Assembly (NCBI GenBank): GCA_047967505.1
Contig: CM106538.1
Strand: one strand, 5' to 3'
DNA: 64,000 bases
DNA from: Dipteris shenzhenensis
Lineage: Eukaryota
The stretch's first letter is position 1; every line of letters starts with the position of its first letter. Position numbers and translations under genes: made by a program. Under the pieces are notes generated by a model. It ran no database searches, was not told the DNA's origin, and worked only from the letters and a program-made list of their open reading frames with translations. Shown piece by piece: positions 9,250 through 56,102 of the stretch.

Positions 9250-9880
9250 TAGAGTAGCTCGTCATTGCTTAGACTGCACTTCTGGCCCTTATTGCCACAA
9301 GGTTAGCACTAACACAAAGACTTCAATCCCCTAACAACAATCATGGTGCAACAACCCTTTGAAAAATGAAAAATTTACTTTGTAGGACCATACATCCTAC
9401 TGCTAAAGAAACACAAGCCTGGTACATAATAGACATAACACATTATTTCACTAAATGCGGTGAGGCAAAAGCAACATGCGAAGGTGATGCCAGAAGTACT
9501 GCCAAGTTCCTTTATAAAAAAGTGATCACACGGTACAGTTGCCCCTTAGAAATAGTCTCTAACCACAGAACACACTTTTTCAATGAAGTGATTTGAAAAC
9601 TTTACTTAGGATTCACAATCGTACACTGGAATACCTATTCCTATTTTCCCTATGGAAACAAGCAAGTAGAATTTGCCAATAAAACCCTATGCATTATTCT
9701 CACAAAGGTAGTGAAACCCAAAATCTTTGACTAGAAAACAATCTCAACTCTATCTTATGGGCCTACAGAACCACTTTTAAGGTAAGCACAAGTTTTACAC
9801 CATTCCAACTAGTATATGGTTTGGAGGCGGTAGTCCCATTAGAATTCATTATGGTCAACGTTTGCTTGGGTATAGCCAAT
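9250..9880 (+). pseudogene. Ty3/Gypsy integrase core relic
   Basis: YIIDITHYFTKCGEAKA..ARSTAKFLYKKVITRYSCPLEIVSNHRTHFFNEVI, then [26 protein letters not shown]; frameshifts and stops. Confidence 0.8.
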
Positions 9881-10128
9881 TGTAGAACTATTTTCGGGGA
9901 CATTTTGGGGCCGCAATGTGATGAGCTTCTGGGTGAATATTTGAAATTTGTGCGGACTCGCGCTCTTGTCAAAAATTTTCTCAACGTCATGAACACGCAC
10001 TGGCATAATAATGAGACGCAATCTTATCATGGTCAATAGCATAGAGCTCGACACATGGAACTATATGCATTTACTCATGAGCACATAGATTGTTGCTCCG
10101 GCCTCTGGCCTGACTACATCACACAACC

Positions 10129-10184: not shown

Positions 10185-10897
10185 TTTTTTTACAATTCCT
10201 CCGATGAGAACAAATTTGAAACCGAACTTACTATAGCAAGATGTTGTCATAATAAGTATACCAATAATCAGACTTACAATCCACCCTATCTTTCACTTGA
10301 AGAACATAAACTAATTACCAAACTCATAACATAGATGACTATTGAAATACCACTTCACCCGCAAAATGCACTAGACCAAACTTTCCAAATGTATCCATGG
10401 TTCACCACAACAATTATCAGTCTATGAACAAAATGGTGTTTTAAACCATGTTCTAATCCTCGTGACATTCATCATCAAGAAAGTAGTTGCCCGCATGTGG
10501 TTTATCTAATTGCCACTCATCATATCTCTTGTCGGCTGTCATGAATCTTGCCATTTTTTCTGCATAGCATGGCAACAAACTACAACAAAACATACATTTC
10601 AAAGGAAAGTAAGTCAAAGTGGAACAATGAAAATAATTTCCAACAAGAAGAAAGTCTTGCCATCCTTATGTGTTATACAAAAGACAATTCGCTACCAACA
10701 AAAAGCAAAAAAAATCAATTGCTAGATCAAGGCCTTACAAACACTATCCAAAGCATCAAAATTTGTACTTTCTTGATTCAAAGGCACCCGTAAATGTTCA
10801 CTATCTACCATATTATAAAGATGCTAAATAACACTTTCAAAGTCCTCAATTTTAGCATTCAAAATATATAACAAAAAAACTCAGGGCCAGTAGCATA

Positions 10898-13800
10898 CTA
10901 GTCATCAAAGGGGTTTGTGACAGGTTCCACTCTCTCTTCTTCCCCCTCTCCATCATGCTCTGACCTGATCCGTTTTCCAGAACGATCTGCCACAAGTGGC
11001 TCAACAATGCTAGCCATAATACTGTTGTCTGAATCAAATGAAAAACAAGGCCTGCCAATGGCCTGACAAGCACGCATAAGAGGGGCTGTACCACAACCCA
11101 TCTCTAGAACCAGCCCTCCAGGAACACAGAGAAGAGACATAATGCAACCTACAAAAAAACTACTCCTCTCTAGTCCACCTCGTGCTAGCTGAGAAGACAT
11201 AGGCATGATTGTCCTTGCAGAGGGAGGTATGTAATGAGTCCAGACATCTTCACGTGGATCAATCAAAAGCTGTTGGAAAAGTGGAAAGCTCTCCTCCCAA
11301 AAAACTATTGGATTCTTCTTTGCTCTACGTATTAGAGCTAATACTGAAGATTGCATCTGGAAACCACATGGAGAAAAACATGTATAGTATATTGACTTCA
11401 ACTAGCAAGCATTATAGCATGAAAGATGGCAAAGATAGCATGCATAGGACTTATCCTTCCAAACATAGCATGCATAGGACTAACGAGGAGACATTTGTCA
11501 AAGACACTTTTATCATGGAATGCAAACATAGAATGCATGGAATGGTAGCTTACCTTAACACTTTTATCATGTTCTCTACAAAATCCATATGGAAACTTGT
11601 CATGAATGATCACACGTCTGACAACCTCCAAGCCCTGGACATATGCAAACCATTCCATCCAACCAATACATTGTCCTACAAGCAATTAATTTTATTTAAA
11701 ACTAGTAGAATGGAAACAAAAATGTGAAATGTCAATTGTGGTATTGTGCCTTACCTGCCAAAGGACATATGCATGCCAACCAACCACTATCAGACAAAGA
11801 AGCTGATGCAACTGCAAGCCCATGCCGCACATGGTCCTCGAGCAAGACATTCCAAGTAGGAGTGGATCCTCTCTCATCAAGTGGATAGCCAGATGGAAAA
11901 TCGAGCAATATAAAATCTGAAGCCCACTTCACCTTCTTACCCATCCTCTTGTAGTCCTGATCTCGACTAGCCACTGTAATAAAAAACTCATGCAAAATAG
12001 CATACTTATCATTTCTTTTAGAGTCAGCAAAGTCTTTGCCCATTGCAATGTAATCTCCAACTGTACAAGCAAACAAAGGTGTGATGCCACGGGCCAAGGA
12101 AATGTCAGGTGACTGTGATCGATGGAACACGTATTGCTTCACAAGTCCCGAGATTGATTCTCCACCTATATGCAAAAGCAAATTAATTACAAGTAAAACT
12201 AGTGTTAAAGGAACAACTACATATGCAGAACACAACAACACCCTTACCTGCACTCTCTATGTGATCCATTTCATGCCGCATAGGACTAGATGGTCCCTCA
12301 TCTAGAAAGAGAACAATCATAAACTTATTAATGCAATGTCAAAACAAATTGAAGACAGCATCAACAAACAATCATATTGTATCTTCCTTACCTTTTTCTG
12401 GAGGATGTTCTTGTTTCTCTTTCTCTTTCTTATCTCTCCTTGAGCTTCCCTCCACTTTGTCCTTACTTGCTTCATTGGCTTTTTGTGAAGCATAAGTATT
12501 GTACAAGTCTCTTTCTCGCACCAGTACTTGTCCTTTAGGAAAATCTATCCACCAGGGACAATGTGCTAATTCCCATTGAGAGAGACGGTGCATGCCAGGT
12601 GGATACATGCATGCAGCATGACCAATCTCCACCCAACTCTTGCACAAATTTGAAATGTCAGAGATCCTTTTCTCTATTGCCAAGTGGGAGAGATATCTAT
12701 CAACCAAGAAACACAAAAAAATTGGATGTCCCAAACCATCAAAAGGTCAAAAAATCAAGTGGAACAACCATCAATGATTGTGTAATTACATGAATCAATA
12801 GCACAAAAATAGACAAATGAAAAATGAACCTTCGAATGAATTGACAACATACCTATAAACCACCTATGGGCAGCCATGTCCAACTCAGATAGTCCATCTC
12901 CTTTTTTTCCACCCTTGCTCTCCATCTTTGTTTCCTTTGATCTTAGCATCACAAACATATGTTTTCTCCCCTCCAGTTTTATATCCTCCATGTATTGCTG
13001 CAATGTGTAATCCTTAGGGGTATCCAAAGGCATGCCCATTGTTGTGATCACCCTCAAATCTTCAAGCACTTTCAATGACTGTCTCTCCACCTTCTCCAAA
13101 AATATCTCTCTACTAATCCACCTAAACAGTAAAAGTTGACGCAATTTTATAATAAAAAAATAAGAGTCATGTTATTGGCAAGAAACAAACAAACACCATG
13201 AAAGATGATTCGTATTGGTAGAAGAAACACACCCTCTGTACTCAAGGTCGCCACAGGCATGAAGTACATGTCTCGCATAGGTTTAGTGGCTTCTAACAAA
13301 GAAAGGAAAATATTTTTTTTTTCTAATCTCAAATCAGACTTTGCAATGAGTTGGAGCTTCTCCAATGTCACGCAAGAGTCCGCACCATCAAAGCGCAAGG
13401 CAAACAACTTTTCCAACCAAGCCTCTCCAAGACCAGGATCTATACAATTCAACACCTATCCAAAGATGACATGTCAGTCACTTAACTTCAAAATAAATGC
13501 AACAAAGTATAGAAAATTCAATTCACACCTTTCCCATCCTATCAGCAATTCTCTTTTGAATTATGGTATGCTGCTTTCCTTGTGCCTCTCCCCTTTGATC
13601 TAAAGGTAGCTTTGTAGATATTTTGTCCATTGCTTTTTTAAGCTCTGTATTGTACTCAACCTACATACATAAGTTCCAATTAGAGAAAGCAAAGGAGTGA
13701 TACAGAAGTAAGCATCAATACAAATGCAACATTCTACCTGGAAGACAAGCCTTGCCAGATAACCTCTTGTCAATGGAAACCATGGCTTCTTCCCTTTACT

Positions 13801-14745
13801 CTCTTGAGCCCTCCAATTCTCTATTGATTTGATCTCACTCAAAGACAATGTTTTCATAAACATCATAGAGTCACACTCACAAATGTTGTGTGCATTTATG
13901 AGTATGTCCCTTAGACTGGGTTTGATAATGGCATGTTCATTCATGCTAGAAAACAAACAGTAAAGTACACAACCCAATCAATTATAAATGCAAAGTGGCA
14001 GCATAAAACACAAATGTGGAGAAGATTCAAAGAGTCCATGTACTTACGAATTCATTCGTTGTAGCCCTGCCAAGAGAGCAATCTCACTAATTTTCCTTGG
14101 GTCAATTATTGTGCATACCACTCGTACATGTCTTTTCTTGTTTGTAGGAAAGATTTCCTTGATAACACTCATCCATGCAGTGGTCCTATGATTGCCCTCC
14201 CAAACAAATAACATCTTTTGCGACATAAAATGAAAGTCAGTGTTAGACATCACATCTTTCTCAAACTCCTCATCCACCTCTCTCCAGGTGGGAGACCAAC
14301 TCTTCCTCATATCATCTGTCACAACTATCTCCCCTCCATCACTCTTGCAGACAGATACAATGAAAGACCCTTTCTCCAGGAGATAGCCCTCCACTTGAAA
14401 TGTACTTTTGAGTGAAGATACATCATCACGAAGTCCTCTCACTCTTGCATAAGGTATCAACCTACACAAGGGAATGCGAGGACACTGGTTTGAATCAAGC
14501 ATCCTACATTTGCCAATCACATCACCTCCTCCTTCCACCTGAACTTCACTATCATCCAACTCATCCTCCTCCACTCTTGGACCTTTATCTCTTTGAGTTG
14601 ATGATACTTCAACCTCTAGACCCACCACACTTTCTTGCTCTTCGGTTCCACCTACTGATGATTCAACATTGTGATCTACTTTTGTTCCTCTTGTCACCTT
14701 TGTAGAATGTGCCACTTGAACTTTTCTGCCTTTTTTTCCTGTCAT
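10898..14745 (-). CDS. Multi-exon (~10 exons) ParB-like domain + beta-class N6-adenine/N4-cytosine DNA methyltransferase-like protein, inside the MULE
   Basis: First coding exon 14745-14048 has RIPLCRLIPYARVR..FVWEGNHRTTAW (ParB/Srx GxHR). Phase-compatible GT-AG junctions lead to exons 13945-13738, 13660-13529 and 13455-~13230. Later exons give DFILLDFPSGYP (motif IV-like, ~11885-11917), LSDSGWLACIC, and PGGLVLEMGCGTAPLMRACQAIGRPCFSFDSD (motif I/II-like, ~11030-11125), ending at stop 10898. Some middle junctions are unresolved. Confidence 0.7.
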
Positions 14746-15317
14746 CCTGAAAAGACAAAAAACAAGGCATTTTTCCAATCATAGTTCTCAAAACCTTTTC
14801 AATAAAAACCAAAACTAAAAACAAGAAACAACATGTAACAACAGATAGAGTATAACCTACGGCAGGTTCAAAGGTCTTCTCAAATCTTTCCATATGCTCA
14901 AAAAAACATGAGAGCTTTTTCACATGTATATATGATAAAGGGTTTGTTTATGAAAACATATGCAATACATATCACGAGGGCAAAGCCCCAAACAGATAAT
15001 GAAGTGTGTACACCTCATAAGGAAAAAGCTTCAAACAAATATCTCAAACTGCTGACATATATGAATGCAAAGGTGTGTAAACTCGCACTTATGAATAAAT
15101 ATCATTTTACATATCTAGACAAAAATACATGTATCTACCAATGCAATTGATTTCCAGTTTAGGGAACATTCACCCACTTGTGTCCTAAAAGACAAAGTTT
15201 CATCTCCAATGCACATAGTATATCAACTTGCAGTGGTATCTATACACTTAGATATATGGAATTGCAGTGGCAAATATGCACTTCTATGCCTACCCCTTAC
15301 CCTGATGAAAAGACACC

Positions 15318-16540
15318 TTGAGAAGCGAAAAAGGACAGCGCGTTAACGTGCTGTCCTTTTTGGCATCTCAAGCTGTCTCTCATGAACGCTTTTCAGCAAG
15401 GCTTTTCTACTCAATCCTCCATGTATCAATACTCACAAGAGGTTGCTTCGACTATTTCATCTTTTGTCTCCAAGTATGCTTTGGTATACAGGTCTTATGG
15501 TCTTTGGAATGCTATTGGACTCTTGGAGGGATAGGTCACATGGTCTTTTGATCGCTATGCAAGGAGGGGACTATTGGACTGCCCGAGGGACCAAAATAGG
15601 CAACGCGTTAACGCGCTGTCTCTTTTGGTCTCTCATGCAATTCTAGAGCATAAATAGGACTGTCTTCGAAATGCTACCTAGATGCCGATGGTCTACAAGG
15701 TTTTCTAAAAATTTTCCTCTTATCTCTACACTTGAACATTGGGGACTTGCACTCGCTCATTTGTTTTGTGAGCTTCTTTCATCCGTTCAAGAGTTGAATA
15801 TCACTTGAATGCCTCTCATGGGAGAGGGTCTTGGACTGTCTGGGGCAACAAAAGAGGCAGCGCGTTAACGCGCTGCCTCTTTTACAGCCCTCCACAGTCC
15901 AAGTTCCCCTCCCTTGCATGACTCTGGGTAACTCTAGCAACCACATACATGCCTCGTATATATGGTTTGTAGAATATGGGCACAAATTTTTGACGGCAAG
16001 TCCTATAAAATGAAATGATACCTCGGGCTACTACACAACCAAGTCAACAAAAAACCTGTGAACACCATTGAGTCCTAAGCAACAACCACCGAGCAATGCA
16101 AGCAAAATGGAGTAACGAAACAAAATGGAGCAAGCAAAAGTCGTGAAGAGCCCGAGGAGATAAAATCCGACGCCAAAATGCAGACTAATAAGAGTATACA
16201 GAAAGGCGTACATCCCATAGCCTGGGGCAGCAAAAGAGGCAGCGCGTTAATGGGGCAGCAAAAGAGGCAGCGCGTTAACGCGCTGCCTCTTTTGCTGCCC
16301 CAGGCTATGGTGTGTATGCCTCCCACACTTCCCACAGTTGAAATGCTGTGGTGGCAGTTGGACTGCCTGGGGCAGCAAAAGAGGCAGCGCGTTAACGCGC
16401 TGCCTCTTTTGCTGCCCCAGGCAGTCCAACTGCCACCACAGTTAACGCGCTGCCTCTTTTGCTGCCCCAGGCAGTCCAACTGCCACCACATCCAAGAGAG
16501 GGCAGGAAGGTACACCACATCCAAGAGAGGGCAGGAAGGA
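15318..16540. repeat. Array of long palindromes with core AAAAGAGGCAGCGCGTTAACGCGCTGCCTCTTTT
   Basis: GTTAAC centres at 15342, 15607, 15864, 16274 and 16391; perfect 96-bp palindrome 16346-16441; half-copy duplications at 16223-16250 and 16441-16490. Confidence 0.95.
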
Positions 16541-18275: not shown

Positions 18276-19104
18276 TGTTTTCCATCAATTTCATCAGCAT
18301 TTACTCCACTCGAATTCCAATGGACCTGTCACCCCGCCCAACGCTCAGTCAATGGCAGGCCTAGCCTTTAGAGAAACGATTTTATCAGATTTTGCAGGCC
18401 TGGTCATTATTAGACGGTAGGAGAAGACGTGGGTATGGGTAACGCCAGAAACCGCATAACCCTTGTAATAGTGAGGAGAACACCTTGTAATGACTCATGA
18501 TGGAAATAGTAATATTGCTCGTTCATGCAAATGTGAAGTAAACTAACACGTTTTGATAGTTTTCATTTTAGATATGGATTTGAAGATACTACTCATTCTA
18601 ACTATTACTAGTAAAATATAGTAATTATAAATCTTTAATTTTTTTCTTAATATTTTAGTCTTTCAATTATATAAATTTGAAAGTTACTTCTCTTTTTATT
18701 CATTTATATTAAATGTACACCCTTACTGAATGAAATGCATGTAGGCGTCATTCAAGTTACTATATGCATGAAGGCATCTTGTTCAAAGATTACCATTATT
18801 CTAAACAAATAAACACATCTTGTTCAATAAAGACTTGCAGTTAAACGACCACCTTGGATGCTAATAGTGACATCCATTTGCATTTGACACTTACAGAGAC
18901 GAACTTGCTTCTTCTCTTCTCTCCCATAATCCCTCTCAGTGGCTCTTTCAACACTTCTCTTTGCTCCATTCTCTTCGGTCTCCAACACATCTATGCCATT
19001 TCTTCTTTTGCCTCCCTGCTTCCGGACCCTTTGTGTAGCTAGCTTTTCTCTTGTTCTTTGGTTGGTGTCGTCTGGTGCTACATCTTGGCTCTAGCATTTG
19101 AATC

Positions 19105-22100
19105 ATGCCTTTCTCAGTTTTCATTCGCTTTGGAGAACACGAATCATTGACCATTCGTTTTGACACTCCTTTCCTGGAGGTTTCATTGGTGGAGCTTAAG
19201 GAACACTTTCACATTGAGAACGAGGACATTGAGCTGCATCAAGAAATCGGAATAGATGAGCTTGCCATTGTACTTCTAGTGGTAAACTTAGAGGATGGTC
19301 AGAAAGGGTTCAAGATTAGTGGTAGCCAACAATCAACCTTAAGAGTTCACATGCCCTATAAAAGAGGTTCTCATGGTGACTTTATGAATCATGAACTAAA
19401 TAGTGTGGTTTCACTGATAGAGAGGATGCCTTTGAATAGTTCTCTTCATGTTGCGCTCAAATCTGCAGTTCGAGTGGAGAAAGTTACTGAGCTTCCTCTA
19501 ACTTATGATGGATATATTGTCTTCGAACTTCCACCTATGCCTAAGGGTTCACCAATGTCTGGAATGGATCAGAATACTGATGGTCATGTTTGGACAAAAT
19601 ATTCCACATGTTCGCAAGACTGCTTCAATGGTGTTGTGAGAATGAGTAGATGTTCAGGTTATTTGAGATGTTGTAATTTGGATTGTCCTTTCCTTGAACG
19701 AATGGGAGTTTTAAATGATACACAATGGAAAGGAAAGCTTAGGAGACCTCCTCTACCTGGTCCCATTGATCCAGCCTTGGGGTCACTTGTGTGCAAGCAT
19801 TGTGATGCAATACCAGAGTGTGTTTACCTATGCAGTGCTATTATATATTATTGCTTTCCCCATGAATGAGTGAAGACAACGAGATGTGCAGTGCATGTGG
19901 GTTTCCATGACCATCCAGTTGAAAAAGGTAGAAGTCGAGCAAAGGAAATGCAAGTAGATGATCTCATTTCAATGCGTGCAAGGTTGAATGGAAATTCCTC
20001 TTGCAAAAAAATCGAGGTGTCTGTGGCACAAGACCTTGTGATGGAGATGATGCTAGCAAAGGATGGGGTTGTTGTGGAGCCGCTAGATGATCAAAAGTTC
20101 GAAGAAGTGCTTGAAACCATTACACCAATGACCCAGAGAAGGAGGCTTCAGAGAGTGGTGCAGAGCGCAAGAAGTGAGGCTAGAGGAGGGGATGGTGGAA
20201 TGGATTCAATACTTGATTTAAAGAGGAGATGCAAATATCCATACCTACAAAGTATCCTATTTCCTGAACAATTGCAAGATGAACAACAACCACATATCTT
20301 CAAAATGTCGACCATTGGTCCAGGATCAGGAGTTGATCTAGTGAATCGCATGCGGCCTGGTGGGAGCTTGGGATCACAATGGGTTCATTTTGACCATGTG
20401 CATCGAGTGAGGGGATGGTCAACAATGGGTGCTCATGTGTATGACCCATTCATAAGGGAACTATTAACTATAGCAATATGTGAATTCAAGGTGGAGGATA
20501 ACCATGCTCAAGTTCGATTCTGGGAGCTACTGAACAATACAATGGAGAAGAATGGTTTTAAAAATCCTGAATTCCGTGGATTCATGGCAGATGGAGCAGG
20601 AGCAAATTGGCTGGCTGTCCGCACTGTTTACAATGGGGGACCGGAAAATGTGATGGATGGTAGAGAAAGAACTTGTGTTTTCCATTGGGAGATGAGCATG
20701 GTTGAGCACACCAGACGATGCATTAAGCCGCAATTTCAGGAGGAGCATAAACTTCTATGTCGGAAGTGGAGAGAGGCAACAACTTCAACTTCTGCAGACC
20801 AATGCAAACAAACATTGAATTTGTATTGGTCCCCAATTCATGTGAAGGAGGGTGAGCTACCAACATTGCATACGTGGCTTGCTTGGTGGGATGTTAGAGT
20901 CAACCAGTGGGGGGGAATGTTCTTGCAGCAAGAAGAGCACTCTGGATTTGTTCCTACAGTGAACCTTTCAGAGACAAAACATTCTAGCATGAGAGCAGCA
21001 CATGGATATGCAAAACACATAACATTGTATGATGCTTGTGCGCAGATCTTGCAATGAGTGTCCTTCAGAGTGCCCACTACAATGCCTTTATGAATGGAAG
21101 ACACTTGGGTACAGGACCAAATTTGGATGCTCTCCGACGAAGAATACTTGATGGTAGTGGGTCTGGTAAAGGGGACAGAAATAGGCTTGTGGATTCATCA
21201 CACATAGTGATTGAAGAGGGTGGGATACAATCTCCTGAGATGAATAGGCCAATAACAGAATCGGTGAGCATAAGAAGAAAGAGGGGTTCAAAATGTTCAA
21301 CATCGGTCCATGCAAATGATAGTCATCGACCAGAATACATGACAGTGACAACAAGGAGAGTGATAGGGAAAAGAAGACAAATTGATTTTAAAAGTCCATC
21401 ACAGGACGTGGTTTGTAGAGAGATAGATATTCATGAAGCCAATTGGGCGATCAGGAGAACTGAACCACATAGCGTTGTCACATGCTTTGGCTACTTGGCA
21501 GAGAGTCGGAGACGATGTGGGGCACTAATCAATGCACTTGGTAGAAGTGCAAGTTATGGTGTGCCAGCCCCTTGTTTTAAGGGAAGAAGGCAACATTCTC
21601 ATGGAGTGACAGAGCAGTTTGTATGGTTTTGTAATACTTCTGTCACCCATACATGGAATGTGGATAAATCCATTCAAGGTGTTCCTGGGGTCTCTCCAGG
21701 TGTATGGAAGGTTGCAAGTGGGACATCAATGACTGTAGACGAGAGGGGTGCCCTTGTAAGGGCAGGTTTCGTATTTAATAGTGATGATTCTATTGGTGTG
21801 ATGGGACCTCCTTATGCATAGCAGATCCATACACCTAGCCATGTGCACCCTTCTCATCGTGATGGAAAGCTTGTTTCATGGAGAAGTAAGTTGAATAAAG
21901 ATTTCAACGAAAGGATACACAAGGCAGTTACAGAAAATGGGGAGGTGGTGAGAGAGAACATCATTATTCCACATGAGGTGCATGTATTCCATGTTCGTAC
22001 AACAGGATCAATGTCTAAGGGGCTAACATATAGTGTCTTGATTTCAGAGTTTCCACGTTGCACATGCCTTGATTTCACAGAAAGGGAAGCAAGAAAAAGT

Positions 22101-22250
22101 CCCTACATGCCTTGCAAGCACATATACTTCGTGTTTATTGTTGTCTTGGGCTTAACTGAAATGGTGCATCAGTTTATGCATCAGGCTGCATTGACAAAAG
22201 TTGAATTGTTTCAAGCTCTGGGTGGTAGAAGAAACCCATCAAGTATGTAG
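19105..22250 (+). pseudogene. MULE transposase with GCM-like N-terminal Zn domain and C-terminal SWIM finger; two stops and one frameshift
   Basis: C/H-rich region ending GFHDHP (GCM/WRKY-fold like); catalytic-type WVHFD, FMADG, CVFHW and VNLSETKH; SWIM CTCLDF..CKHI. TGA 19867-19869, frameshift ~21040, TAG 21819-21821; no introns needed. Confidence 0.85.
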
Positions 22251-27517: not shown

Positions 27518-29351
27518 TTAAGTGCAAATGTAGATATTGCTGGCTACTGCACTAGTGTGTGTGAAATACCGACATTCACGTAGAGAGCATGACAACTTAT
27601 AGGCTTTCTTCTCATCACAATAGCCTAAGAAGATACATTTGGTGCTTTTTTGTTGTAGCTTGTTTCTCTCTTTGTCTAGTACATGCGCATAGGATTCACA
27701 CCCAAACATTGTAAAGTGGGAGACAGATGGCTTCTTACTGCTGTAAGCCTCATGTGGTGTTTTACCTTTGAGTGCCTTTGTATAGCTGTGACGATTAAGG
27801 ATGTAAACCGTAGTATTGATAGCCTTAACCCAAAAGTGGTTTGGCAGTCCAGCACCTTTCAACATACACCTCCCCATCTCCACAATGGTCTGCATTCAAC
27901 ATTTAACAATCGAATTTTGCTGAGGGTATGTGGTGTCATCATTTGTCGCTTGATCCCTTTAATCTTGCAAAAATCTCCAAACTCTGTGGAAACAAACTCA
28001 CCATCACCATCCGATCTGAATTTCTTCACTTTTCTCCCTGTTTCATTTTCAACAAGCTGTAGCCATTCTTTCAATTTACCAAAAGCTTGAGCCTTTTTGC
28101 GAAGAAAGTACACCCACATCTTCCTACTATAGTCGTCAACAATCAATAAAAAATAGGAAGATCCCCCCAGGCCTGTGTAGGCATCTTACTGCACAAGTCA
28201 ACATGCACCAACTCTAGAGGATTTTTTGCTCTATTCTTGCTTCTTGTGGGAATGCCTTTCTTTGTTGCTTGCCCATCATGCAAGCTTCACATGGTTCTTT
28301 GAATTCTGCTACTGTAGGTAAGTGAACAACCATTTCTTGCTTCTGCATCTCCTTCAGCACTGCAAGACCGATGTGCCCAAATCTTTCATGCCAAAGTCTG
28401 CTTGTGTCCACTCCAGCAGTGGCTATAAGAGCACTTAGATCATACAGGCTGTTCCTCCTTACTCCTATGCCAACAAGATTTCCAGCACTATCTAGAATTT
28501 TTTCTCTTATCTTGTTGAACCTCACCTCATGGTCAAGGTCAGTTATGGAAGCAACTAATAGCAAATCTCTCTTGATTTGTGGAACATAGAGCACATTAGA
28601 TAGTTTCTTAACATCTCCGTTTACAAAAACAAATGAAACCATACATGTATCCTCAAGAGGGCATTTTGCGTTATTTCCAACCATCACGGTGATGGGTTCC
28701 TGTAGAGGTTGCATAGAACAATATAGACCCTTCTTGTAGGTCATGTGATGGGAGGCACCACTATCCACCAACACCCATGAATTAGTGGTTGACGCTTCTT
28801 GAACTGAGGAATACTCTTCCTCAATGGCCAGAAATAGATCCAACTCTACTTCCATTGTGTTAGTTGTCTCTTTTCCCTTATCTGTCTTCTTCAGGGTACC
28901 ATTCTTGTCATCTGCTTTCTTAACCCGACAATCTGCAATTGCATGGCCCTTCTTCTTGCAGTAGAAGCATTCTCCTTGAAACTTCTTTTTGCCACCCTTC
29001 TTCTTTTGTCACCACTAGTAGAGGACTCACCTTTGGTGGAGGAACCACCTTTGCCTTTTGTAGTGGCAAAGAACACATCATCCCCATTGCTGCTTCCATC
29101 TCGAGCTTTAAGCCTCAATTCCTCCTCCATAAGTAAAGCACAGAACTCCTCAAATGACAATGGTTGGGGTCTCACCTGAGTGTTAAGTGCTGTTACCAGT
29201 CCATCAAACCTTGGTGGACATATTCGGAGACATCATCGAGCTAGCTCTTTGCTAGTATTTTGTATCCCAGCACCAGCCATGTGTTCACATAGATTTTTGA
29301 TTCGAGTTATGAACGCCTCCACTGTCTCTCCTTAATTAAACTTCTCAGCCA
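27518..29351 (-). pseudogene. Ty1/Copia gag-protease-integrase relic, related to Copia A
   Basis: LVDSGASHHMT (protease), LWHERFGH..CEAC (integrase HHCC), IVDDYSRKMWVYFL, RSDGDGEF. The gag segment PLSFEEFCALLMEEE resembles Copia A. No LTRs found. Confidence 0.85.
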
Positions 29352-30994: not shown

Positions 30995-33900
30995 TCAATT
31001 AAGAGCATTTACATCAACAGTTTCATCTTGAGCCAAGTCTAAGGCGCCAAACAAGTCTATCTCCAACTCTATACCGAGTTGATCTCCTATATCATCATCG
31101 TACTCTAGCATCGTACGTTCATCGAAAAGTACTTGATCATCTTCTTCAATAAAGTGTGGTGATTCTTGATGATCGTTGTCTTCTTCCTCAATACTGTGAT
31201 CTCCATCTTTCTCCCGTGTGATGTCATTATGCGCATCTTCCTCTTGGCTCATATTGTGATCTTCATCTTCTTCGCTAGATTCATCGGGATCAATTGGATC
31301 CGGCATTGGTAGTGGCATCTCCATATCCACATCTCTATCTTCAAAAATTTGCTTACTTCGTGGTGCAATTTGGATCATGTACAACCATCTTCGATCAGAA
31401 CGATCTGGATGCAAAACCACCTATATTGAAGATGGGTGCCAAATGTCATCAATTATATATATGAAATTATGCTCAAGTACATGTATCAATGGATCTTTAA
31501 AAACTAAAGCTTTGATTAATTAAATCATTAGTATGCACTTGCTCACAGTGCTCGGGAAGAACAAAAGTATCATTTTCATCGGTCCAATGTTTGGTGGAGT
31601 CTATTGCAAAGAAACCGCTACTATCTTTTCTCACTGTCGCATGGGGACCGTTGTAAATAGTTCTAAACCATTTTACATCAAGAATGAAAATACTAAATCG
31701 TCTGAAATCAACTTCATAGATGTCACGTATGGTTCCACAATAATCCAACTGCGAGAAGAGAAAATTGGTATCCGAAGCACTTGCTCGGCTATCTTGTGTG
31801 AAGTTAGCCATGAATCCACAATCATACGTGACTCTCTTTGAATCGATGCGTTCCATGTGAAAATGTCATCCATATGACCATAATGCACTGTACTTTTTGT
31901 ACTGTAAAAGAGCATCATTAAAACAATGAAGATGCATCTATTTTATAGCATATATTGCCACAAATAATTACTTAACTATGTCAAGAGGTAAGAAACTTAC
32001 ATGCACCATACATCCAGATGATAACTCTCGCTCGTGCTTGTTTATTGTCTCTCCATCGTGTTTGGCTTTACGTAAAGCTAGTTGTAGCCAATCAAGTGAT
32101 GTGAGTGGGGAGAAGAGCCAGATCCCGTGGATATGGTTGCGATCGCCTATACATTACTCTGAATCTCGTCCTTGCATTTATTCTTTCTACTTTGGCCACT
32201 TCATATCTCTCAATCCACTTCTGCATCTCAGGGCTATTGAGGATACAAAACTTATTGAATTTCTCCATTTTCTCTTCGCTCATCTTTCTTTCAATCCCTT
32301 TTCCTTGGGGAACCTCGCCAACGATGCGATCATCATCCTTGTTATGCCAAGCTTGCGGCATATCGGGATCTGTGGATGCAAGAAACTCTGTGATATATAC
32401 TAATGACTCTTGCACAAGCCATCCCTTTGCAATGCTTGCTTCTAGTCTTGCTCTTTGTCTTACAAATCCCTTTAAAGTTTTCATAAACTACTCGAGAAAA
32501 AACATCCATCGACTATGAACGGTACTTGCAATAGCCACCTCATCAAATATGTGCACAAGCAAGTGGACTTGAGTTGTCATGATGCTCGAGGGAAAGTGCT
32601 TCTCAAGCAAGCATACGGCTTCGATGGATTCCACCCTAGCCTTCTCGATGCTCGATATGGAGGTCTCTTTTTGAGATGTCCACCTATTTCACATGTCCAT
32701 GTAAGATATTTTCATATTCAGTATACAGATTAATCAGCCTAAATTGAAGAAAATGCAATCAATGCGATTTGATAGTAAGCATACCTCACAATACCACAGA
32801 TCTTGAATATAGCATTTCTAACATCTTCTTGTAAGCATCCTTTTATTGTAATTGGGAGGATGAACTATCAAAGCAACAAAGAAGTCATGTCAACAATATA
32901 ACATAATCATAATTTCGCTAATGTATCATGATTATCAGTACACTAATTCTACTTAGAATACTTGTAAGACCTTGTGCCAATCATGGGACTTGAGCCCACT
33001 AAGCTTATTGTCCTTTGAAAATGCTCCTTTCAGGCAACGCATGTACCTTGTCAGTGTTTGAAAAGAGGCAATGTCTGCCTTGATCGATGCCTCCTCCCTT
33101 GTAGAGAGGATCCACGTTGCTTTTGGGAGGACAACTTTTCCCGAAGCATGCACTTGGGGCCACAAACAAGACATCCTATTCATAGCACGCAAGTCTTCTT
33201 GCACTCCTCTTGAGTCTTTGGAACCAACCAAGTGTGCCCAAATAGTAGTCCCCACATTCTTAAAGATATGCATGGGATCCAAGAGATGATTGATTTGTAA
33301 CTGACCCCAATAAGGAAGCTCGTGAAAGATCGATAGCCTCTTCATACCAGGAGGAGGTTCCTCTCCATTTGCCCTCCAAGCTTGAATCCAATCACTTGCC
33401 TTCAAATATGATGGTGGTGGATCAAGCTGACCTCCACGTGCGAGATGGTCGAGTGGAAGGTATCGAGCATGACCTTCATAAACATTTTTCCTCATATGTT
33501 TGGAGTAGTGTGCAAGCGATTTCAAAACCGGTCCACAAACAGGACAAGCATGGTACCCACTTGTAACAAGTCCTGCACGCGTGCATGAATGTGTTAGTAT
33601 AAGACATGCATGCAAAAGAGTCATAAAAGCATAATCCCTCATTATAAATGTAGAGACACAACCATGTACTTGCGCACTCTCCATATCCTAGGTAGTCATG
33701 CATGGTCCACATCAGGATACCCCTGACAAATATCATTGTTATGTCTAGGAGCTCTGGAAATATCAAAGACCTGCACTTCTCTCCATAATATCTGTAACTC
33801 CTTTATCAAAGGTGCCATGTACACGTCCATATTTTTTGCCTTGTACTTTCCTGGCACAAGTAGTGCAAGCATGAGGTGTCCCTTTTTTATTGTTAGCCAT

Positions 33901-37559: not shown

Positions 37560-40500
37560 TGTTGAGATATCGAGCTCCACTCGCGATATGCCAGGGTGAC
37601 CGTTGTGTACTTATGTCACCGACTTGTTAGCTGGAGATGCGGTTGGTACACCGCCCATGAATAATAGCTGGATGACAGCTATCCTTATCTACTCTAGTTT
37701 GTGGCTCAGTTAGTATGCCACCTTAGTTAGTTGAGTTTGGTTTGAGACCCACATATAGGGTTCTTCTATTTTCTTTGTACTTGAGTTCTTTTGGTTTTCA
37801 CAACTAAGAAGAGGAAAACTGTTTTCAGCCTCCACCTTCATGTGTATTCCCCCATTGTGATTGTGAGAAAGCCTCAAGTGAGACTCCTTCCCTCTCTCCC
37901 ACTATCTTCACATGGTATCAGAGCCTTGTTCGTGGTAAGGAGCTCAAGAAAGCAAGCCAAGTTCGTGGTGTCCTGGTAAGAGGACCAGTGTTGCTTTCCT
38001 ATTTCGAGTTTGGGAGCAAATCTCTGCAGGTAGCACAACCAGAAGTGCAAGAGTGCACTGTCTCAGATTGAGACGCCCTTCGCGGTGTGGCGAGAGCGCA
38101 GTATATGCTGCGGATAAGGGCAAAGCCCTTAGTGACGTTATTTTTTTGATTCGAGGTCATTTCGAGGCCCGTTTTGGAGACAAAAGTTCTCCGCAGGCAC
38201 TCAGAAAAAGGCCCTGTTTTTGCTGTGCGACCACTGTTCTGCGGGTTGGTGAAAAGTTGCCACAGAAATTGCATCGTATGCCTTTGTGCAGAGATATTGG
38301 GAGTTGCAGATTCATGCTTGTTGCCTGTTGATGCAAAATCGTCACTAGGAAGTGACTGTGTGGTGAAATACCACTTTCGTCAGTTTTGCAGTTCTGCCCG
38401 TGTGACGCAAAAATTGTGTTTTTTTTGCAGTGACAGAATATTTTGTAGTGTTCTGTAATGGCATTTGATTCTCTTTCATAGATTGTCACTGAAAAGCTTG
38501 ACAAGAACAACTTCCAGGCATGGAAGTTTAGAATGACGAATTTCTTGATGGGAAAAGGCTATTGGGAGTTCATTATAAGAAATGAAGAAGAACCTGTTCT
38601 TCCTAATGTTCCCAGTCAACAAGAAATGCAGGCATTCAAAGGATGGCATGAGAGAGCCAGGAAAGTTATGTACTGGCTGTCTATCAGTATTTCGGACTCC
38701 ATGATTGTGCATATTCAGGATGCAAGTACGCCAAAGGAGGCATGGGATACTTTGGCAAAAATGTACAGCACAAATACGCAAGCCAGGAAAATGCAGCTCA
38801 AGCAAGAGCTGCACAATGTGTAGAGAGAAAACATGAGCATCAATGACTACCACATGAAGGTGAAGAAAATTGCGGATGCACTTGCTTCCATTGGGTCGCC
38901 AGTGGATGATGACGATTTGGTTTCTGTGACCTTGAATGGTCTAGGAAAGGATTATGCACAATTCCAAACATCCATTGCCGTCCGTGAAAAATTTCCAGAT
39001 TTTGAGGAGTTGATTGCTCTTCTAATTTCTGAAGAGCAGAGAAATGGGGGTGCATCTTCTTCAGCAGGAACTTCAAAAGAAACTGTCTTCTACTCAAATG
39101 CTAGCAGAGGTAGAGGCAGAGGTAGAGGAGGCCGATCTACAGGCCGTGGTAGAAATCAGAATATGCAGCAAACACAAGAAAACCAGTCCTATGTAGGAGG
39201 ATGTGGTAACTGTAGAGGCAGGGGGAGCCAAAGAGGCCGTGGTGGATGGCAGAGAGGCCAAAATGCAAACAGCAATGTTGAATGCTACTATTGTGGCAAA
39301 ATGGGTCATATGGCTAAGGACTGCTATAAAAAGCAGAATGACATTATGACTGGAAAATTGCAGCAAGGCAATTATGCATCTTCTAGTAGGCAGGGTGATG
39401 ACAAAAATGAGCATCTATTTATGGTGCAGCATATGACCAATTCTGTGACAAGTGCAGAAGAACGAAATGATGTGTGGTATGTTGACTCAGGTGCATCAAA
39501 CCACATGACAGGTCATGCAGAATGGATGCAAGATGCAAGGAAAATGGAAAAACTAGGATTTGTGGAGACTGGTGATGATACTGCACATCCTATTGTGCAG
39601 ATTGGCAAAATTCCTTTGTCTATGCAGGATGGGAAAAAGAAATACTTGTCTGATGTATTTCATGTCCCGAACATCACCAAGAACCTGGTTTCTGTTGGTC
39701 AGATGGTTGAGCAGGGCTTGCAGGTCAGATTTAATTCTCATGGATGCTTTGTTGAGGATATGAAAAGTAATGGTCGCTTGATAGCAAAAGGAAAGAAGAA
39801 GGGCAGGATGTTTATGTTAGATGCGGACATGCCTGAATTGAGTGCAGCAATGTTTGCACATGGGACCAGTGTAGTTGCAGATATTGATATCTGGCACAAA
39901 CGCATTGGTCATGTTAATATACAGCGACTTAAATCAATGCAAGCCCAAAATATTGTTGCAGGATTGCCTAAATTCAAGGTTGCAGAAATGCACAAGGTTT
40001 GTGAAGCCTGTCAATTTGGGAAACAGGCAAGGAAACCTTTTCGTAGGCATGTTCAAGAGAGTAAAAAGCCATTGGAATTAATCCACTCTGATGTGTGGAC
40101 TACTAAAGCTACATCTATTGGTGGCTGTCACTATTTTGTCACATTTATTGATGACTTCAGCAGAAAACTTTGGGTGTATTTTTTGAAAAAGAAAAGTGAA
40201 GTGTTTGGGCACTTCAAAGCTTTCAAAGCTATGGTTGAAAAAGAAACAGGCCTGCAAATAAAATGCCTAAGGTCAGATGGAGGGGGAGAGTACCTCTCAA
40301 ATGAGTTTGCAAGGTTCTTGCAGGAGCATGGTATAAAGCAGCAATATTCATGCAGTCATACCCCACAGCAAAATGGAATTGCAGAAAGGGAAAACAGGCA
40401 TATTGGAGAGGTATCTCGAGCTATGCTAAATGAAAAAGATCTACCAGATTATTATTGGGCTGAAGCAGTTGCTACAGCAGTTTATATAATGAACAGGACT

Positions 40501-42295
40501 CCCACTGCAGCAATACATGGCATGACGCCAGAGGAGATGTATACTGGTAGGAAACCAAATATTTCTCATTTGAAAATTTTTGGTTGCATTGCCTATGTCC
40601 ATGTGCCAGATGAGTTGAGGTCCAAGTTGGATCCAGAGGCTCAGAAGTGCGTCTTTATTGGTTATTCTCTGCAGCAGAAAGGGTATAGATGCTATAACCC
40701 TTCTACACGTAAGTTCACAGTGAGCAGAGATGTTTTTGATGAGATGAGCAGCTGGTATAAACCAGTAAATGTGATGATTGATGTAGATGCACAAAATTGT
40801 AATGCTGCACAAAATTCACAGCAGCAATCACAAAATATCAGTGGACCTACAGTGTCCTCTAGCAGTGGTTCACATACTTCACCATGGACAGGTAGATTGA
40901 GATCAGGAGAATCTCCTCAAAGCAATGCAGATAGTGGTACACAGGTATCACAGAAAGGAAAAGAGAAGGTAGATCACCCCATGTTTGATGTGAATGCAGG
41001 TCACTCTTATGTGGATGGTGAATCCAGTGGCTCAGAGCAGAGCATTGATGATGAGTTGGGTATTCCTTCTGTTGTTACACCTGGAGTAAGGAAGACTAGG
41101 GATGTTTTGAGAGCACCTGGAAGTGAGCCTATTTTGCGCAGGTCTACCAGGGTTAGGTATCCTGTGGATAGGCTGAAATATGATGGATTTACAGCCATTC
41201 ACTATGCCTATATGGTCAAAGTGATACAGGAACAAGAACCCACTTCTTTTGAGCAAGCCATGGGAAATGAAAAATGGGAGAAAGCCATAGATGAAGAAAT
41301 GGATGCCTTGGATGCTAATGCTACATGGGAATTGGTGCCTTTGCCTAAAGACAAGAATGCAATTGGCTGTAAGTGGGTTTATAAGATCAAGCACAATGCA
41401 GATGGTTCTGTGAATAGATACAAGGCAAGATTAGTTGTCAAGGGGTATGCATGTCAGACATATGGCATTGATTATGATGAAACTTTCAGCCCGGTTGCAA
41501 GGATGGCAACTGTAAGAGTAGCCATTGCTATGGCTGCATCAAAGGGATGGTCTTTACATCAGATGGATGTAAAGAATGCCTTCTTGCATGGTGATTTGCA
41601 AGAAGAGGTCTTTATGGAGCAGCTAGCAGGTTATGTTCATGCTACTCATCCTGAGTTTGTTTGCAGGTTGAAGAAAGCCTTGTATGGCTTGAAGCAAGCA
41701 CCTAGAGCATGGTCTGACAAGATAGGACAGTATCTTGCAGTCTTTCATGCTAGAACAAAGCACATTGAGGTGCATTATCACTATGTGTGGGAGAAGGTTT
41801 TACTAGGTCTTATTGATCTAGTTTATGTCAGCATAGAGGATCAGGTAGCTGACATATTCACAAAAGCATTGGGCACAGAGAAGCTGCGCAAGTTCAGAGA
41901 CCTGCTTGGTGTGCAGGAATTAGGATTGAGCTCGAGGGGGAGTGTTGAGATATCGAGCTCCACTCGCGATATGCCAGGGTGACCGCTGTGTACTTATGTC
42001 ACTGACTTGTTAGCTGGAGATGCGGTTGGTACACCGCCCACGAATAATAGCTGGATGACAGCTATCCTTATCTACTCTAGTTTGTGGCTTAGTTAGTATG
42101 CCACCTTAGTTAGTTGAGTTTGGTTTGAGACCCACATATAGGGTTCTTCTATTTTCTTTGTACTTGAGTTCTTTTGGTTTTCACAACTAAGAAGAGGAAA
42201 ACTGTTTTCAGTCTCCACCTTCGTGTGTATTCCCCCATTGTGATTGTGAGAAAGCCTCAAGTGAGACTCCTTCCCTCTCTCCCACTATCTTCACA
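37560..42295 (+). mobile_element. Copia B: young Ty1/Copia element, 353-bp LTRs, internal RT/RNase H deletion
   Basis: LTRs 37560-37912 and 41943-42295 (6 transitions counted); TSD CTACC; PBS TGGTATCAGAGC 37913-37924; PPT GAGGGGGAG 41934-41942; inserted into the Copia A RNase H ([13 protein letters not shown]). Confidence 0.97.
38458..41982 (+). pseudogene. Copia B gag-pol polyprotein (two premature TAG, in-frame RT deletion)
   Basis: ATG 38458; TAG at 38479 and 38821; CCHC knuckle CYYCGKMGHMAKDC; WYVDSGAS; HHCC and DDE integrase; RT stops at WSDKIGQYL and jumps to [10 protein letters not shown]. Confidence 0.92.
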
Positions 42296-43621: not shown

Positions 43622-46600
43622 TGTAAAGAACAAGGGAGAGAGATAGGAGACTCAAGTTCAGCTTTCTTCACAACACACAAAAGAGAGAGGACACAAGGTT
43701 GGAGGGTGAAGCCTTTCTTCACTTTTGCACACAACAACAATACAATAGAAGAGGGAAATACCCTATATGTCAAAACCTAGAATACGTGGTTCATATGTGA
43801 ACCCAAACCAAAAAGATACGTGGTAGTCTAACTACACCACGAGTACAACTAACATAGGCGGTGACATAAATGATAGTCATCCAGGAGATATATCGGGGGT
43901 AGAGCTTGATATCTCAACACTCCCCCTCAAGCTCAAATCCATCTCACGTACACCAAGCAAGCTCCTAAATCTGTGAAGCTTCTCGGTACCCAATGCCTTC
44001 ATAAAAATATCAGCCACTTGCTCCTCAGTGCTGACATAGACAAGATCAATCTCACCAGCTAGAACCTTCTCTCTCACAAAGTGATAATGCACCTCAATGT
44101 GCTTCGTTCTAGCATGATAAACTGGGTTATTAGCAAGCATGATGCTGCTAATGTTGTCACAATGAATGACAACTGCTGCATGAATTGACTGTCCCATATC
44201 TGCAAGTAGCTTCCGTAACCAAGCTACCTCACATGCAGCCATTGCTGCACCCCTGTACTCAGCCTCTGTGCTCGACAAGGCAACTGTTGGCTGCTTCTTG
44301 CTGCTCCAACTGATGGCACCACTCCCAAGGGAAAACATAAAGCCACTAGTAGATCTCCTGTCTGAGACACTACCAGCCCAATCAGCATCTGTGTATCCAT
44401 GTACCTGTAATGCACACCCAGCTTCATAAAACAGTCCATAATGCAATGTGGACTTCACATACCGCAGTATGCGCCTAGCCGCATCCAAATGTGGCTTCCT
44501 CGGTGCCTACATAAACTGACTTACCAGCCCCACAGCATAGCTCAAATCTGGTCTGGTTATAGTCATGTAAATCAAGCTACCTACTATGCGCCTGTACATA
44601 GTAATATCTTCAAGAAGCTCACCTGTCTCTGCATTGAGCTTCACATTCTACTCCAATGGAACAGAAATAGGCTTACAGCCTGTCATCCCATATTTGGACA
44701 GCATGTCCAAACCGTATTGCCTTTGCAACAGCCATATCCCACTCGGGGATCTAATAACCTCAATGCCCAAGAAGTAACGCAGCTCTCCCAAATCCTTCAT
44801 CTCAAATTTCTGCTTCAACAGCAGCTTCACTTCATTAATGTCTGCATCACTATCACCTGTAATAATCAAGTCATCAACATAGATGACTATAAGCACAATC
44901 CCTCTGTTTGTCCTTTTCACATAAAGTGAAAAATCTGAATTGGAAATCTGAAATCCAATAGTGACAAGATATTGCCCTATCTTGTCTGACCATGCCCTCG
45001 GCGCCTGTTTTAAGCCATACAAGGCTTTGCGCAACCTGCATACAAAATCGGGGTGTAAATTATCCTCATAACCTTTTGGCTGCATCATATAAACCTCTTC
45101 CTGCAAATCACCATGCAAGAAGGCATTTTTCACATCCATCTGATGCAAAGACCATCCCTTTGCAGCAGCCATAGCAATTACTGCTCTCACGGTTGCCATC
45201 CTTGCAACTGGGCTGAAAGTTTCCTCATAGTCAATTCCATATGTCTGCGCAAAACCTTTGGCAACCAATCTTGCCTTGTACCTGCTAACAGACCCATCAG
45301 CATTGTGCTTTACTTTGTAAACCCACTTGCAGCCAATAGCCTTCTTATCATGAGGCAAAGGCATCAAATCCCAAGTGTGGTTTGCATCCAAGGCAGCCAT
45401 CTCTTCATCCATAGCTGCTTCCCAATTTTTATGCCCTGCTGCATCCTCAAAACATGTGGGCTCTGGCTCTTCTAGAACCTTGACCATATAAGCATAGTGA
45501 TGTGCTGTATACCCATCATATCTCAGCCTGTCAACTGGATACTTAATACGAGTGGACCTCCGTACAACTGGATCAGTTGTAGGAGTCTTTAAATCATGCC
45601 TGCTTTTCCTTGCACCAGGTGTAACAACAGAAGGAATCCCAAGTTCCTCATCAAGGCTCATTTCAGAGCCGCTTGACTCTCCATCAACATGAGAGCTACC
45701 AGTAGACACATCAAACACTGGAGCATGGTCTACTTTTTCTTTTCCCTTATGTGACACCTGCACAACACTATCAGGGCTGCCATGTGACGATTCACTAGAT
45801 CTCAATCTCCCTGTCCATGCATTAGATCCACTAGTAGAGGACTCTCTGGGTCCACTCAAGGCTTGAGATTGCTGCTCTGCATTTATTGTAGCATTCCCAT
45901 TTCCTGCATCTGCATCTCCTACCATAATAGTTGGTGCATACCAGCTACTCATTTCATAAAAAACAACATCTCTGCTCACTTGCATTTTGCGGGTGGAAGG
46001 GTTATAACAGCGATACCCTTTCTGGTGCAGAGCATATCCAATAAAGATGCATTTTTCTGCCTTTGGATCCAGCTTTGTTCTCTTCTCATCAGGAACATGA
46101 ACATAAGCTATGCAACCAAATACCTTCAAGTGAGAAATATCTGGTTTTTGGCCTGTATACATTTCTTCAGGCGTCATGCCATGGACAGCTGCAGTGGGGG
46201 TTCTGTTCATAATATAAACAGCAGTTGCTACTGCTTCAGCCCAAAAATAATCAGGCATGTTTTTCTCATTTAGGATCGCCCGTCCTACTTCTGCAATATG
46301 CCTGTTCTTCCTTTCTGCAACCCCATTCTGCTGAGGGGTAGACCTGCCTGAGTACTTCCTTTGAATTCCTTGTTCTTTTAGATATTCACAAAATTCTTCT
46401 GAAAAGTACTCTCCCCCTCCATCAGATCTTAGCACTTTAATATGCACACCTTTCTCTTTTTCAACCATGGCCTTAAAAGCCTTGAAATGGCTGAACACTT
46501 CACTTTTGTGCTTCATAAAATAAATCCACACCTTCCTAGTGTAGTCATCAATAAACGTCACATAATAATGGCATCCACCAATAGAAGCAGCTTTGGTTGT

Positions 46601-56100: not shown

Positions 56101-56102
56101 TG

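Follow-up and report, generated by a model that had tools for sequence, protein, structure and literature searches.

The stretch of Dipteris shenzhenensis DNA analyzed here, hereafter the window, comprises 64,000 nucleotides of contig CM106538.1 (assembly GCA_047967505.1) and carries on its minus strand a gene of ten coding exons (14745..10898). The last three of these exons, which are covered by the region 10898-12170, encode a C-terminal domain of ~330 residues whose fold is that of adenine/cytosine DNA methylases from bacteria and phages, with the catalytic motif replaced. A preliminary description of this region had recognized a beta-class amino-methyltransferase with an aberrant motif IV from four peptide strings. 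All four are present on the minus strand within 10898-12170, in exons 8 and 10: DFILLDFPSGYP and LSDSGWLACIC belong to the open reading frame (ORF) 11732..12256, and the ORF 10898..11401, closed by the stop codon 10900-10898, contains GLERSSFFVGCIMSLL and PGGLVLEMGCGTAPL..ACQAIGRPCFSFDSD.

Gene structure and splicing

The ten exons are separated by nine introns, all with GT-AG borders and matching phases, as read from the sequence and checked by script. To this structure we added contigs from four runs (X1-X4; the kind of each run is a guess) placed on positions 10500-15300; no run with an RNA label covers this stretch. The X2 and X3 contigs, which come from two organisms other than the source and from two studies, span 9 of 9 introns and are joined exactly at the predicted borders for eight of the nine, where the intron ends read CT..AC in plus-strand orientation. 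None of the listed joints occurs in X1 or X4, where every listed piece lies unbroken on 10500-15300. The homologous protein P0038 (1198 residues, a single ORF on a transcript-like contig of 4658 nucleotides) is collinear with all exons from its residue 300 to its end, and tblastn identities to the window exons are 30-54% across every junction and 30-48% for exons 8-10.

Exon 10 (10898..11356, stop codon included) carries motifs X, I and II as well as an acidic tail, and its product ends in NPFDD. The central part of the domain is encoded by exon 9 (11554..11675), whose 40 residues form a helix and strands matching motifs VII-VIII, and the N-terminal half by exon 8 (11755..12165; 46% identity to P0038), which contributes the GDY-bearing first strand, the strand-4 motif and the LSDSGW strand. 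Both introns inside this region (joints 11356/11554 and 11675/11755) are joined exactly in X2 and X3. Further upstream, exon 7 (12248..12301) has 18 codons and its joints 12301/12392 and 12165/12248 are present in X2 and X3. Exon 6 (12392..12696) is modelled from the sole AG acceptor in the window, which gives an in-frame junction. The transcripts of relatives begin this exon 11-12 nucleotides further upstream and gain four residues; the joint in X2 and X3 is 12706/12863, with a single letter left unaligned. An AG is lacking at that position in the window, where the next AG leaves an in-frame exon four codons shorter. Exons 5 (12864..13121), 4 (13233..13455, one base short for the frame) and 3 (13529..13660) are delimited by contig joints, collinearity with P0038 and GT-AG borders, and exon 2 (13738..13945) by GT-AG borders and collinearity with P0038; joint 13660/13738 is present in X3 and X2, and joint 13945/14048 in X3. 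Exon 1 (14048..14745) is an ORF with a GT donor, and its ATG (14745-14743) directly follows a splice acceptor. It is 54% identical to residues 300-468 of P0038 (tblastn), and its product has an acidic N-terminus followed by the conserved block IPLCRLIPYARVRGLR...FVWEGNHRTTAW.

The contigs contain other joints as well, including a skipped exon (13658/14046) and alternative donors in exon 4. In one X2 contig, 154 nucleotides of exon 10 (11024-11179) are replaced by 4 letters, a net in-frame loss of 150 nucleotides that removes exactly motifs X, I and II; this contig represents a paralog or variant without the SAM-binding (S-adenosylmethionine-binding) part. Residues 1-300 of P0038 have no counterpart in the window, where the tblastn alignment starts at residue 300, and no Pfam match. 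The X3 contigs run on upstream of 14748 into a further exon, which a search of the window with their loose end, at up to three mismatches, did not find.

Fold of the C-terminal domain

An AlphaFold2 model was built on the fern homolog P0012 with an alignment of 34 rows. Residues 211-480 form a block with a predicted local distance difference test (pLDDT) score mostly of 81-97, and the N-terminal 200 residues are poorly predicted. Foldseek returned 184 matches of this model in the PDB at E <= 1e-3, headed by CcrM (6pbd, E 5.5e-12), M.BceJIV (6.2e-12), PvuII (2.8e-11) and M1.HpyAVI (6.9e-11), followed by rotifer N4CMT, RsrI, MboIIA and TTHA0409, and then by a type III Mod subunit and METTL3/MT-A70. 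Template modelling (TM) scores of the top matches are 0.52-0.75, normalised to the target. The best matches in BFVD are phage and Pandoravirus N4/N6 methylases, and one BFVD match is a ParB/Sulfiredoxin fusion. In the model, strand VDLIFLD (261-267) leads into the loop FPTG, a helix, a strand with D.GW, another helix and three strands; then come helix 421-431, strand LVLDM, the glycine loop (442-446), a helix, strand ACFSFD and a final helix. The strand-4 motif and motifs V-VIII accordingly lie N-terminal to helix X and motifs I-II, the circularly permuted order, and P0012 resembles solved PF01555 (N6_N4_Mtase) members in three dimensions. The preliminary description had proposed the same order, with motif IV ahead of X, I and II, and had made its reading depend on structural matches and on co-splicing. 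The model and the HMMER and hhalign alignments bear out the order; the best solved structures are exclusively beta-class N6/N4 DNA methylases, with type III Mod and MT-A70 enzymes after them; and exons 8-9 and 9-10 are joined in two sets of contigs, with P0038 running through them as one ORF.

Sequence comparison leads, by indirect links, to the same family for the SAM-binding end of the domain. Exon 10 (P0003) matches the lycophyte protein P0026 at E 1.4e-6, and four relatives pass the PF01555 cut-off of 26.7 bits (P0039 with 36.3, P0026 with 33.8, P0031 with 28.5 and P0029 with 27.5), their matches covering only profile positions 164-219, the last ~55. A profile of the family finds DpnA/M1.HpyAVI as its best match in the PDB (E 0.0012); 8 of the 16 entries on that list are beta-class DNA methylases, and the other 8 are class I methyltransferases aligned on the glycine loop only. 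In hhalign, the family aligns with four phage N6_N4 enzymes, obtained through tblastn of the lycophyte P0039, over 66 columns that hold motifs X, I and II (E 6.6e-6, probability 84.8%). PF01555 itself does not match the window exons, P0006, P0027, P0030 or P0038, and gives P0012 13.3 bits. Nothing significant came from single-sequence phmmer of exons 8 and 10 against the PDB, and there was no match in BLASTP of exon 10 against a canonical phage methylase or in tblastn of P0031 against phages.

An ordinary, unpermuted class I methyltransferase whose resemblance to N6_N4 enzymes is coincidental would account for the loop VLEMGCGT, which is similar to classical motif I, for Methyltransf_23 (E 0.02), the sole Pfam match on a window exon, and for a weak match to CpaM in NCBIfam. 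Both matches are far under their cut-offs, however, and touch only the glycine loop; that loop follows the strand-4 motif and is located at the domain's C-terminal end; and the listed Foldseek ranks include no small-molecule or protein methyltransferase. We regard this alternative, which the Foldseek ranks contradict, as highly improbable. The assignment of the domain to the circularly permuted, beta-class fold of the N6_N4_Mtase type can be made with high confidence.

Catalytic and SAM-binding motifs

At the position of motif IV (11888..11902, exon 8) the window encodes D-F-P-S-G in place of the canonical D-P-P-Y-G. The form D-[F/L]-P-x-x is found in all 13 members that cover the site, and (D/N/S)PP(Y/F/W) in none of them. 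The window has DFPSG; P0038, P0006, P0027 and P0012 have DFPTG, and P0032 DFPIG; the leucine variants are DLPTG (P0023, P0040, P0041), DLPTR (P0030), DLPMD (P0042, P0044) and DLPMN (P0043). The aspartate and the proline are unchanged in all of the aligned relatives (7 of 7) and also in further ORFs, and in the P0012 model the motif stands at the end of strand 261-267 (..LDFPTG). The phage comparators carry DPPY there. In the canonical enzymes, the aromatic residue at position 4 of motif IV stacks on the flipped base. Two further blocks are exchanged throughout the family: W.K..P.P reads (V/I)..D(K/R).(P/A)(Y/C)(G/S), and HP..KP reads G.(E/Q)RS. The preliminary description was right that motif IV is altered, and the homologous copies are non-canonical too (0 of 13 of DPPY type); decay of this copy, which it had offered as one cause, is rejected because D-[F/L]-P-x-x is common to 13 of 13 family members. 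Judged from these alignments, the altered motif IV is an old, conserved trait of the family.

The SAM-binding half is preserved, as had been suggested. Motif X (11176..11129) aligns with DpnA and the phage methylases, and the glycine loop of motif I, LVLEMGCGTAP (11113..11081), and motif II, CFSFDSD (11047..11027), all in exon 10, were placed by HMMER and hhalign. The loop GCGT[A/G/S]P and the strand-2 aspartate in ..S[F/L/I]D.D are conserved in the family and align with FxGSGTT and ..IE/ELD of DpnA and the phage enzymes, so that motifs I and II are present as motif matches. Of the correspondences drawn in the preliminary description, those for X, I and II are recovered by both programs; LSDSGW, set against K(P/N)GG, and DFPTG, set against DPPYG, fall in the right registers, in alignments that are statistically weak.

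These features would fit a domain that descended from bacterial or phage DNA amino-methyltransferases and retained the permuted beta-class fold. SAM would still be bound through the kept glycine loop and strand-2 aspartate. Because motif IV has lost its aromatic residue and first proline and the blocks of the pocket are replaced, canonical base-flipping methylation of N6-adenine or N4-cytosine would not be expected, and the domain would act as a SAM- or nucleic-acid-binding, or regulatory, module of a large multidomain protein. From the motifs, we put at about even the chance that the domain is a catalytically remodelled pseudo-methyltransferase, predicted to bind SAM and probably inactive on DNA bases.

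The principal rival is an active methyltransferase that uses the new loop D-[F/L]-P-x-x on DNA, RNA or a non-nucleic-acid amine. The aspartate and second proline of motif IV never vary among the 13 members, whose identity is otherwise only 26-53%, the glycine loop and strand-2 aspartate are conserved, the entire fold is kept with high model confidence, and lycophyte relatives retain a canonical-looking motif I, DPFMGGG. An enzyme of this kind would nevertheless have to work without the position-4 aromatic of D-P-P-Y, missing in all 13 members, and with the first proline, the W.K block and HP..KP replaced as well; no family model recognizes its catalytic half. We consider such activity rather unlikely, though a serious candidate.

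Relatives and family

A HMMER scan with exon 10 among 1.84 billion proteins found 27 at E <= 1e-3, 15 of them at E <= 1e-10, and profile searches brought further relatives. An organism name is attached to 18 relatives, each of them labelled hypothetical or uncharacterised: Adiantum nelumboides contributes 12, A. capillus-veneris 4 and the lycophyte Diphasiastrum complanatum 2. The rest are ORF fragments, many with starts and ends matching those of exons 8 and 10. No seed-plant protein is among the named matches, a result obtained with exon-sized queries only, so that absence from seed plants is not proven. A word-index homology search with exon 8 returned no relatives, and a full-length word-index alignment search gave only close Adiantum copies among the 8000 candidates considered. 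The translations of exons 8-10 are collinear with the C-terminal domain of the fern proteins (35-46% identity to the first row of the alignment), and most relatives end in x-P-[FYML]-D, as in NPFDD of the window (10915..10901).

In D. complanatum the C-terminal exon exists in two versions, one with DPFMGGG (P0039 and P0026), which passes PF01555, and one with the fern-like LDLGCETS (P0028). From this comparison, the split between canonical and remodelled forms may predate the ferns. The family was not described in the literature searched, which was not exhaustive, and supplements, for example those of horizontal gene transfer surveys or of Iyer et al., could list such genes. It is probably an undescribed, non-canonical branch of the adenine/cytosine DNA methylases.

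Reading frame of the window copy

Joined at the relatives' borders, the coding sequence (CDS) measures 2870 nucleotides, one base under a multiple of three, and meets a stop 16 codons into exon 5. This separate frame break, upstream of the methylase-like domain, was absent from the preliminary description. The missing base is placed at 13249..13252 on the minus strand, in exon 4, by comparison of the window with its relatives: the window has ..PVATLSTEG, continuing into exon 5 in the wrong frame, and relatives read ..PVGDLEYRGW.. at this place. In X3 contigs a letter is added at 13250, and 18 letters lie between the sides of the joint in X2 and X3, one more than in the window. With the base restored, the window gives GDLEYRGW, where P0038 has GDISYRGW. 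Because exon 4 is one base short, the protein ends before the methylase-like domain unless a donor GT 4 nucleotides downstream (13228-13227) is used; this donor, which has a weak context, yields an ORF of 957 residues with zero internal stops. Across the relatives' junctions the window copy thus lacks an intact frame, which is restored only through the +4 donor, and the copy is either recently disabled or dependent on the shifted donor.

The chances are evenly balanced that the window copy is a non-functional pseudogene, whatever intact family members do. The shortened CDS and its early stop point that way, as do the extra base or in-frame residues that X2 and X3 contigs and P0038 all carry at 13249-13252, the window's lack of an AG at the relatives' exon 6 acceptor, a stop at 14414 in another close copy, in X1, and the many truncated gene models in Adiantum. 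Set against these are the single frame break in about 2.9 kb, the otherwise open exons with 30-54% identity to P0038, the stop-free ORF of 957 residues through the downstream GT, and the location of the missing base within a GGG run, a place of assembly errors. The window organism's own reads are not conclusive at the site, and a real lesion cannot be distinguished from an assembly error because the sole X1 contig there stops at 13252.

The stop at 14414 is a G>T change that converts a serine codon in an X1 contig over exon 1 (16 differences in 738 nucleotides), so that another genome contains at least one disabled close copy. Between the window and its close copies, 40 of 230 differences were listed, and 23 of these lie in the CDS; 16 are non-synonymous, including one that creates a stop, and 7 are synonymous.

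N-terminal region

The product of exon 1 may possibly have a ParB/Srx-like fold. Its block ..LIPYAR...EGNHR.. recalls, to our eye, ParB N-terminal domains; this is presumptive, with no model, profile or fold test confirming it. No match to ParB_N (PF02195) was found on the N-terminal region with Pfam, PHROG, NCBIfam or PDB profiles, hhalign against two phage ParB domains gave a weak alignment of 16 columns (E 0.2), and the AlphaFold2 model of exon 1 has a pLDDT of 40. A language-model look-up with residues 78-231 of exon 1 (14053-14745) ranked DUF3723 (PF12520) clusters first (0.96 and 0.95, 187-190 of 256 features), followed by a cluster with 11% ParB_N members (0.91) and phage DUF6551 (0.89). 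These are leads only: the hidden Markov model (HMM) of PF12520 matches no family member, and ParB_N is likewise unconfirmed by HMM.

Neighborhood and possible mobile origin

Most of the surrounding sequence is transposon-derived. Two Ty1/copia polyprotein ORFs (1052 and 964 residues), pieces of copia gag and integrase, a fragment of a tnp2 (CACTA-type) transposase, and an integrase-like remnant just 3' of the gene are distributed over 38824-41982, 55106-57386 and 9363-10039 on the plus strand and 44648-47542, 28214-29008 and 32953-33687 on the minus strand. Upstream, 0.6-1.7 kb from the first coding exon, a cluster of near-perfect palindromes of ~96 nucleotides occupies 15300-16500. They are built on GGCAGCAAAAGAGGCAGCGCGTTAACGCGCTGCCTCTTTTGCTGCC, with arms of 48-55 nucleotides, 100% complementarity and in some cases no spacer, and look like miniature inverted-repeat transposable elements or hairpin repeats. 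At 19102-22250 on the plus strand, four abutting ORFs (255, 395, 262 and 142 residues) resemble one intronless gene broken by stops or a frameshift, and have no Pfam match at 1e-3; the CxC...CxH of the last ORF is reminiscent of the SWIM zinc fingers of MULE/FAR1-type transposases.

A mobile element or an integrated virus might carry the family or have given rise to it, in which case the conservation of the family would reflect selection on the element and not on the host; this is compatible with either an active or an inactive domain. A single fern genome holds many copies and fragments (12 named A. nelumboides proteins), the differences among close copies look near-neutral, the neighborhood is rich in transposons (copia, the integrase remnant 3' of the gene, the tnp2 piece), the nearest prokaryotic-type relatives are phage methylases, some of them ParB fusions, and the language-model look-up with exon 1 points to DUF3723, which accompanies Starship elements as an accessory gene. 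The gene has, on the other hand, nine spliceosomal introns, and ORF fragments of other organisms share their starts and ends with exons 8 and 10. Around the gene we found no terminal repeats or target-site duplications, only the upstream palindromes; the gene has no demonstrable link to a transposase, and the depth of the DNA run suggests only one to three close copies. A mobile or viral origin, with a still selfish status, appears unlikely.

Interpretation and significance

Taken as a whole, the locus is best explained by a ten-exon gene whose product ends in a permuted methylase fold, kept as a SAM module without canonical catalysis, an explanation we judge slightly more probable than its negation. 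Several results weigh against it. No Pfam, NCBIfam or PHROG methylase model is significant on the window exons or the fern proteins; the structural model is that of a homolog 38-44% identical to the window exons and not of the window's own spliced protein; the profile-profile alignment extends over only 66 columns; and the register of DFPTG over DPPYG is statistically weak (hhalign E 0.019, probability 2.4%). The strict conservation of the aspartate, the proline and the SAM loop would be equally expected of an active enzyme with a variant loop. The frame of the window copy is broken, and the ratio of 16 non-synonymous to 7 synonymous differences, in a small sample selected by the tool, suggests weak constraint on recent copies.

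Land plants have few bacterial-type amino-methyltransferases, and few N6A-methyltransferases, according to the 2015 survey by Iyer and colleagues (PMC4738411), and Marchantia DN4MT1a/b write N4-methylcytosine (4mC) in sperm, as stated in a preprint (bioRxiv 10.1101/2021.02.12.428880). Besides these two, the literature searched yielded no other plant PF01555 enzymes. The present family would be a second one in plants, extending from a lycophyte to ferns, with fern members invisible to Pfam and with a remodelled catalytic loop. Tentatively, and with the odds somewhat against it, we propose that non-seed vascular plants keep an undescribed beta-class lineage derived from a phage or bacterium, in which DPPY was rebuilt as D-[F/L]-P-x-x and the SAM pocket was preserved. 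Such a lineage could have acquired a new chemistry or substrate, or could have become a SAM-sensing or nucleic-acid-reading pseudoenzyme within a chromatin-type protein of ~1000 residues, and would represent a second acquisition of an amino-methyltransferase by land plants, independent of Marchantia DN4MT1. The family raises the question of whether an unrecognised modification of nucleic acids exists in ferns and lycophytes or, alternatively, whether a DNA methylase was turned into a pseudoenzyme that binds SAM or DNA, as in MT-A70 complexes. In either case it provides an annotation handle for a set of fern "hypothetical proteins".

Comparison with known systems

The closest structural and profile matches are the PF01555 enzymes (CcrM, M.BceJIV, M1.HpyAVI/DpnA, M.PvuII, M.RsrI and M.MboIIA), which share the permuted fold and the order of GD strand, strand-4 motif, motifs V-VIII, helix X, glycine loop I and acidic motif II. 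They differ in having (D/S)PP(Y/F) where this family has D-[F/L]-P-x-x and in keeping HP..KP and W.K, which are replaced here; the fern members also score under the Pfam cut-off, and the domain is embedded in an intron-rich plant protein of ~950-1200 residues. The family has the PF01555 fold yet fails two of its defining features, the HMM score and the catalytic motif.

Fusions of ParB with an N6_N4 methylase are enriched in phages, according to one survey (PMC12704722). Examples matched by the lycophyte P0039 in tblastn are those of Ruminococcus phage NatCom_23091 (XTK83491.1) and of Caudoviricetes sp. (UOF79262.1, beside a terminase), in which, as here, the methylase lies C-terminal to a long N-terminal region. 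The phage fusions are recognized by the ParB_N and PF01555 models alike and carry DPPY, whereas the plant N-terminus scores on no ParB model and about 450 residues without assigned function lie between the two ends of the plant protein. DUF3723 (PF12520), which a preprint describes among the accessory genes of Starship elements in fungi (bioRxiv 10.1101/2021.12.13.472469), resembles the gene only in the language-model features of exon 1, with no HMM match, and not in the methylase-like domain.

Marchantia DN4MT1 and bdelloid rotifer N4CMT likewise place a bacterial-type amino-methyltransferase fold in a eukaryotic, intron-containing gene; DN4MT1 is also from a non-seed plant lineage, and N4CMT is the rank-20 structural match. 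Both have demonstrated 4mC activity and keep the catalytic motif, quoted as TSPPY for MpDN4MT1a/b (bioRxiv 10.1101/2021.02.12.428880; for N4CMT, PMC8885841 and PDB 8s9m). The present family differs from them in lacking the catalytic motif and in its architecture; TSPPY, compared as the motif quoted in the preprint, is absent from the window protein.

The MT-A70 enzymes have a related permuted fold, and METTL3 is matched at E 2.4e-7, clearly more weakly than the PF01555 enzymes; there is no sequence match, and their degenerate motif differs from the one described here. The METTL3-METTL14 pair nonetheless offers a precedent, in which METTL14 has a degenerate motif IV and serves as a non-catalytic binding partner.

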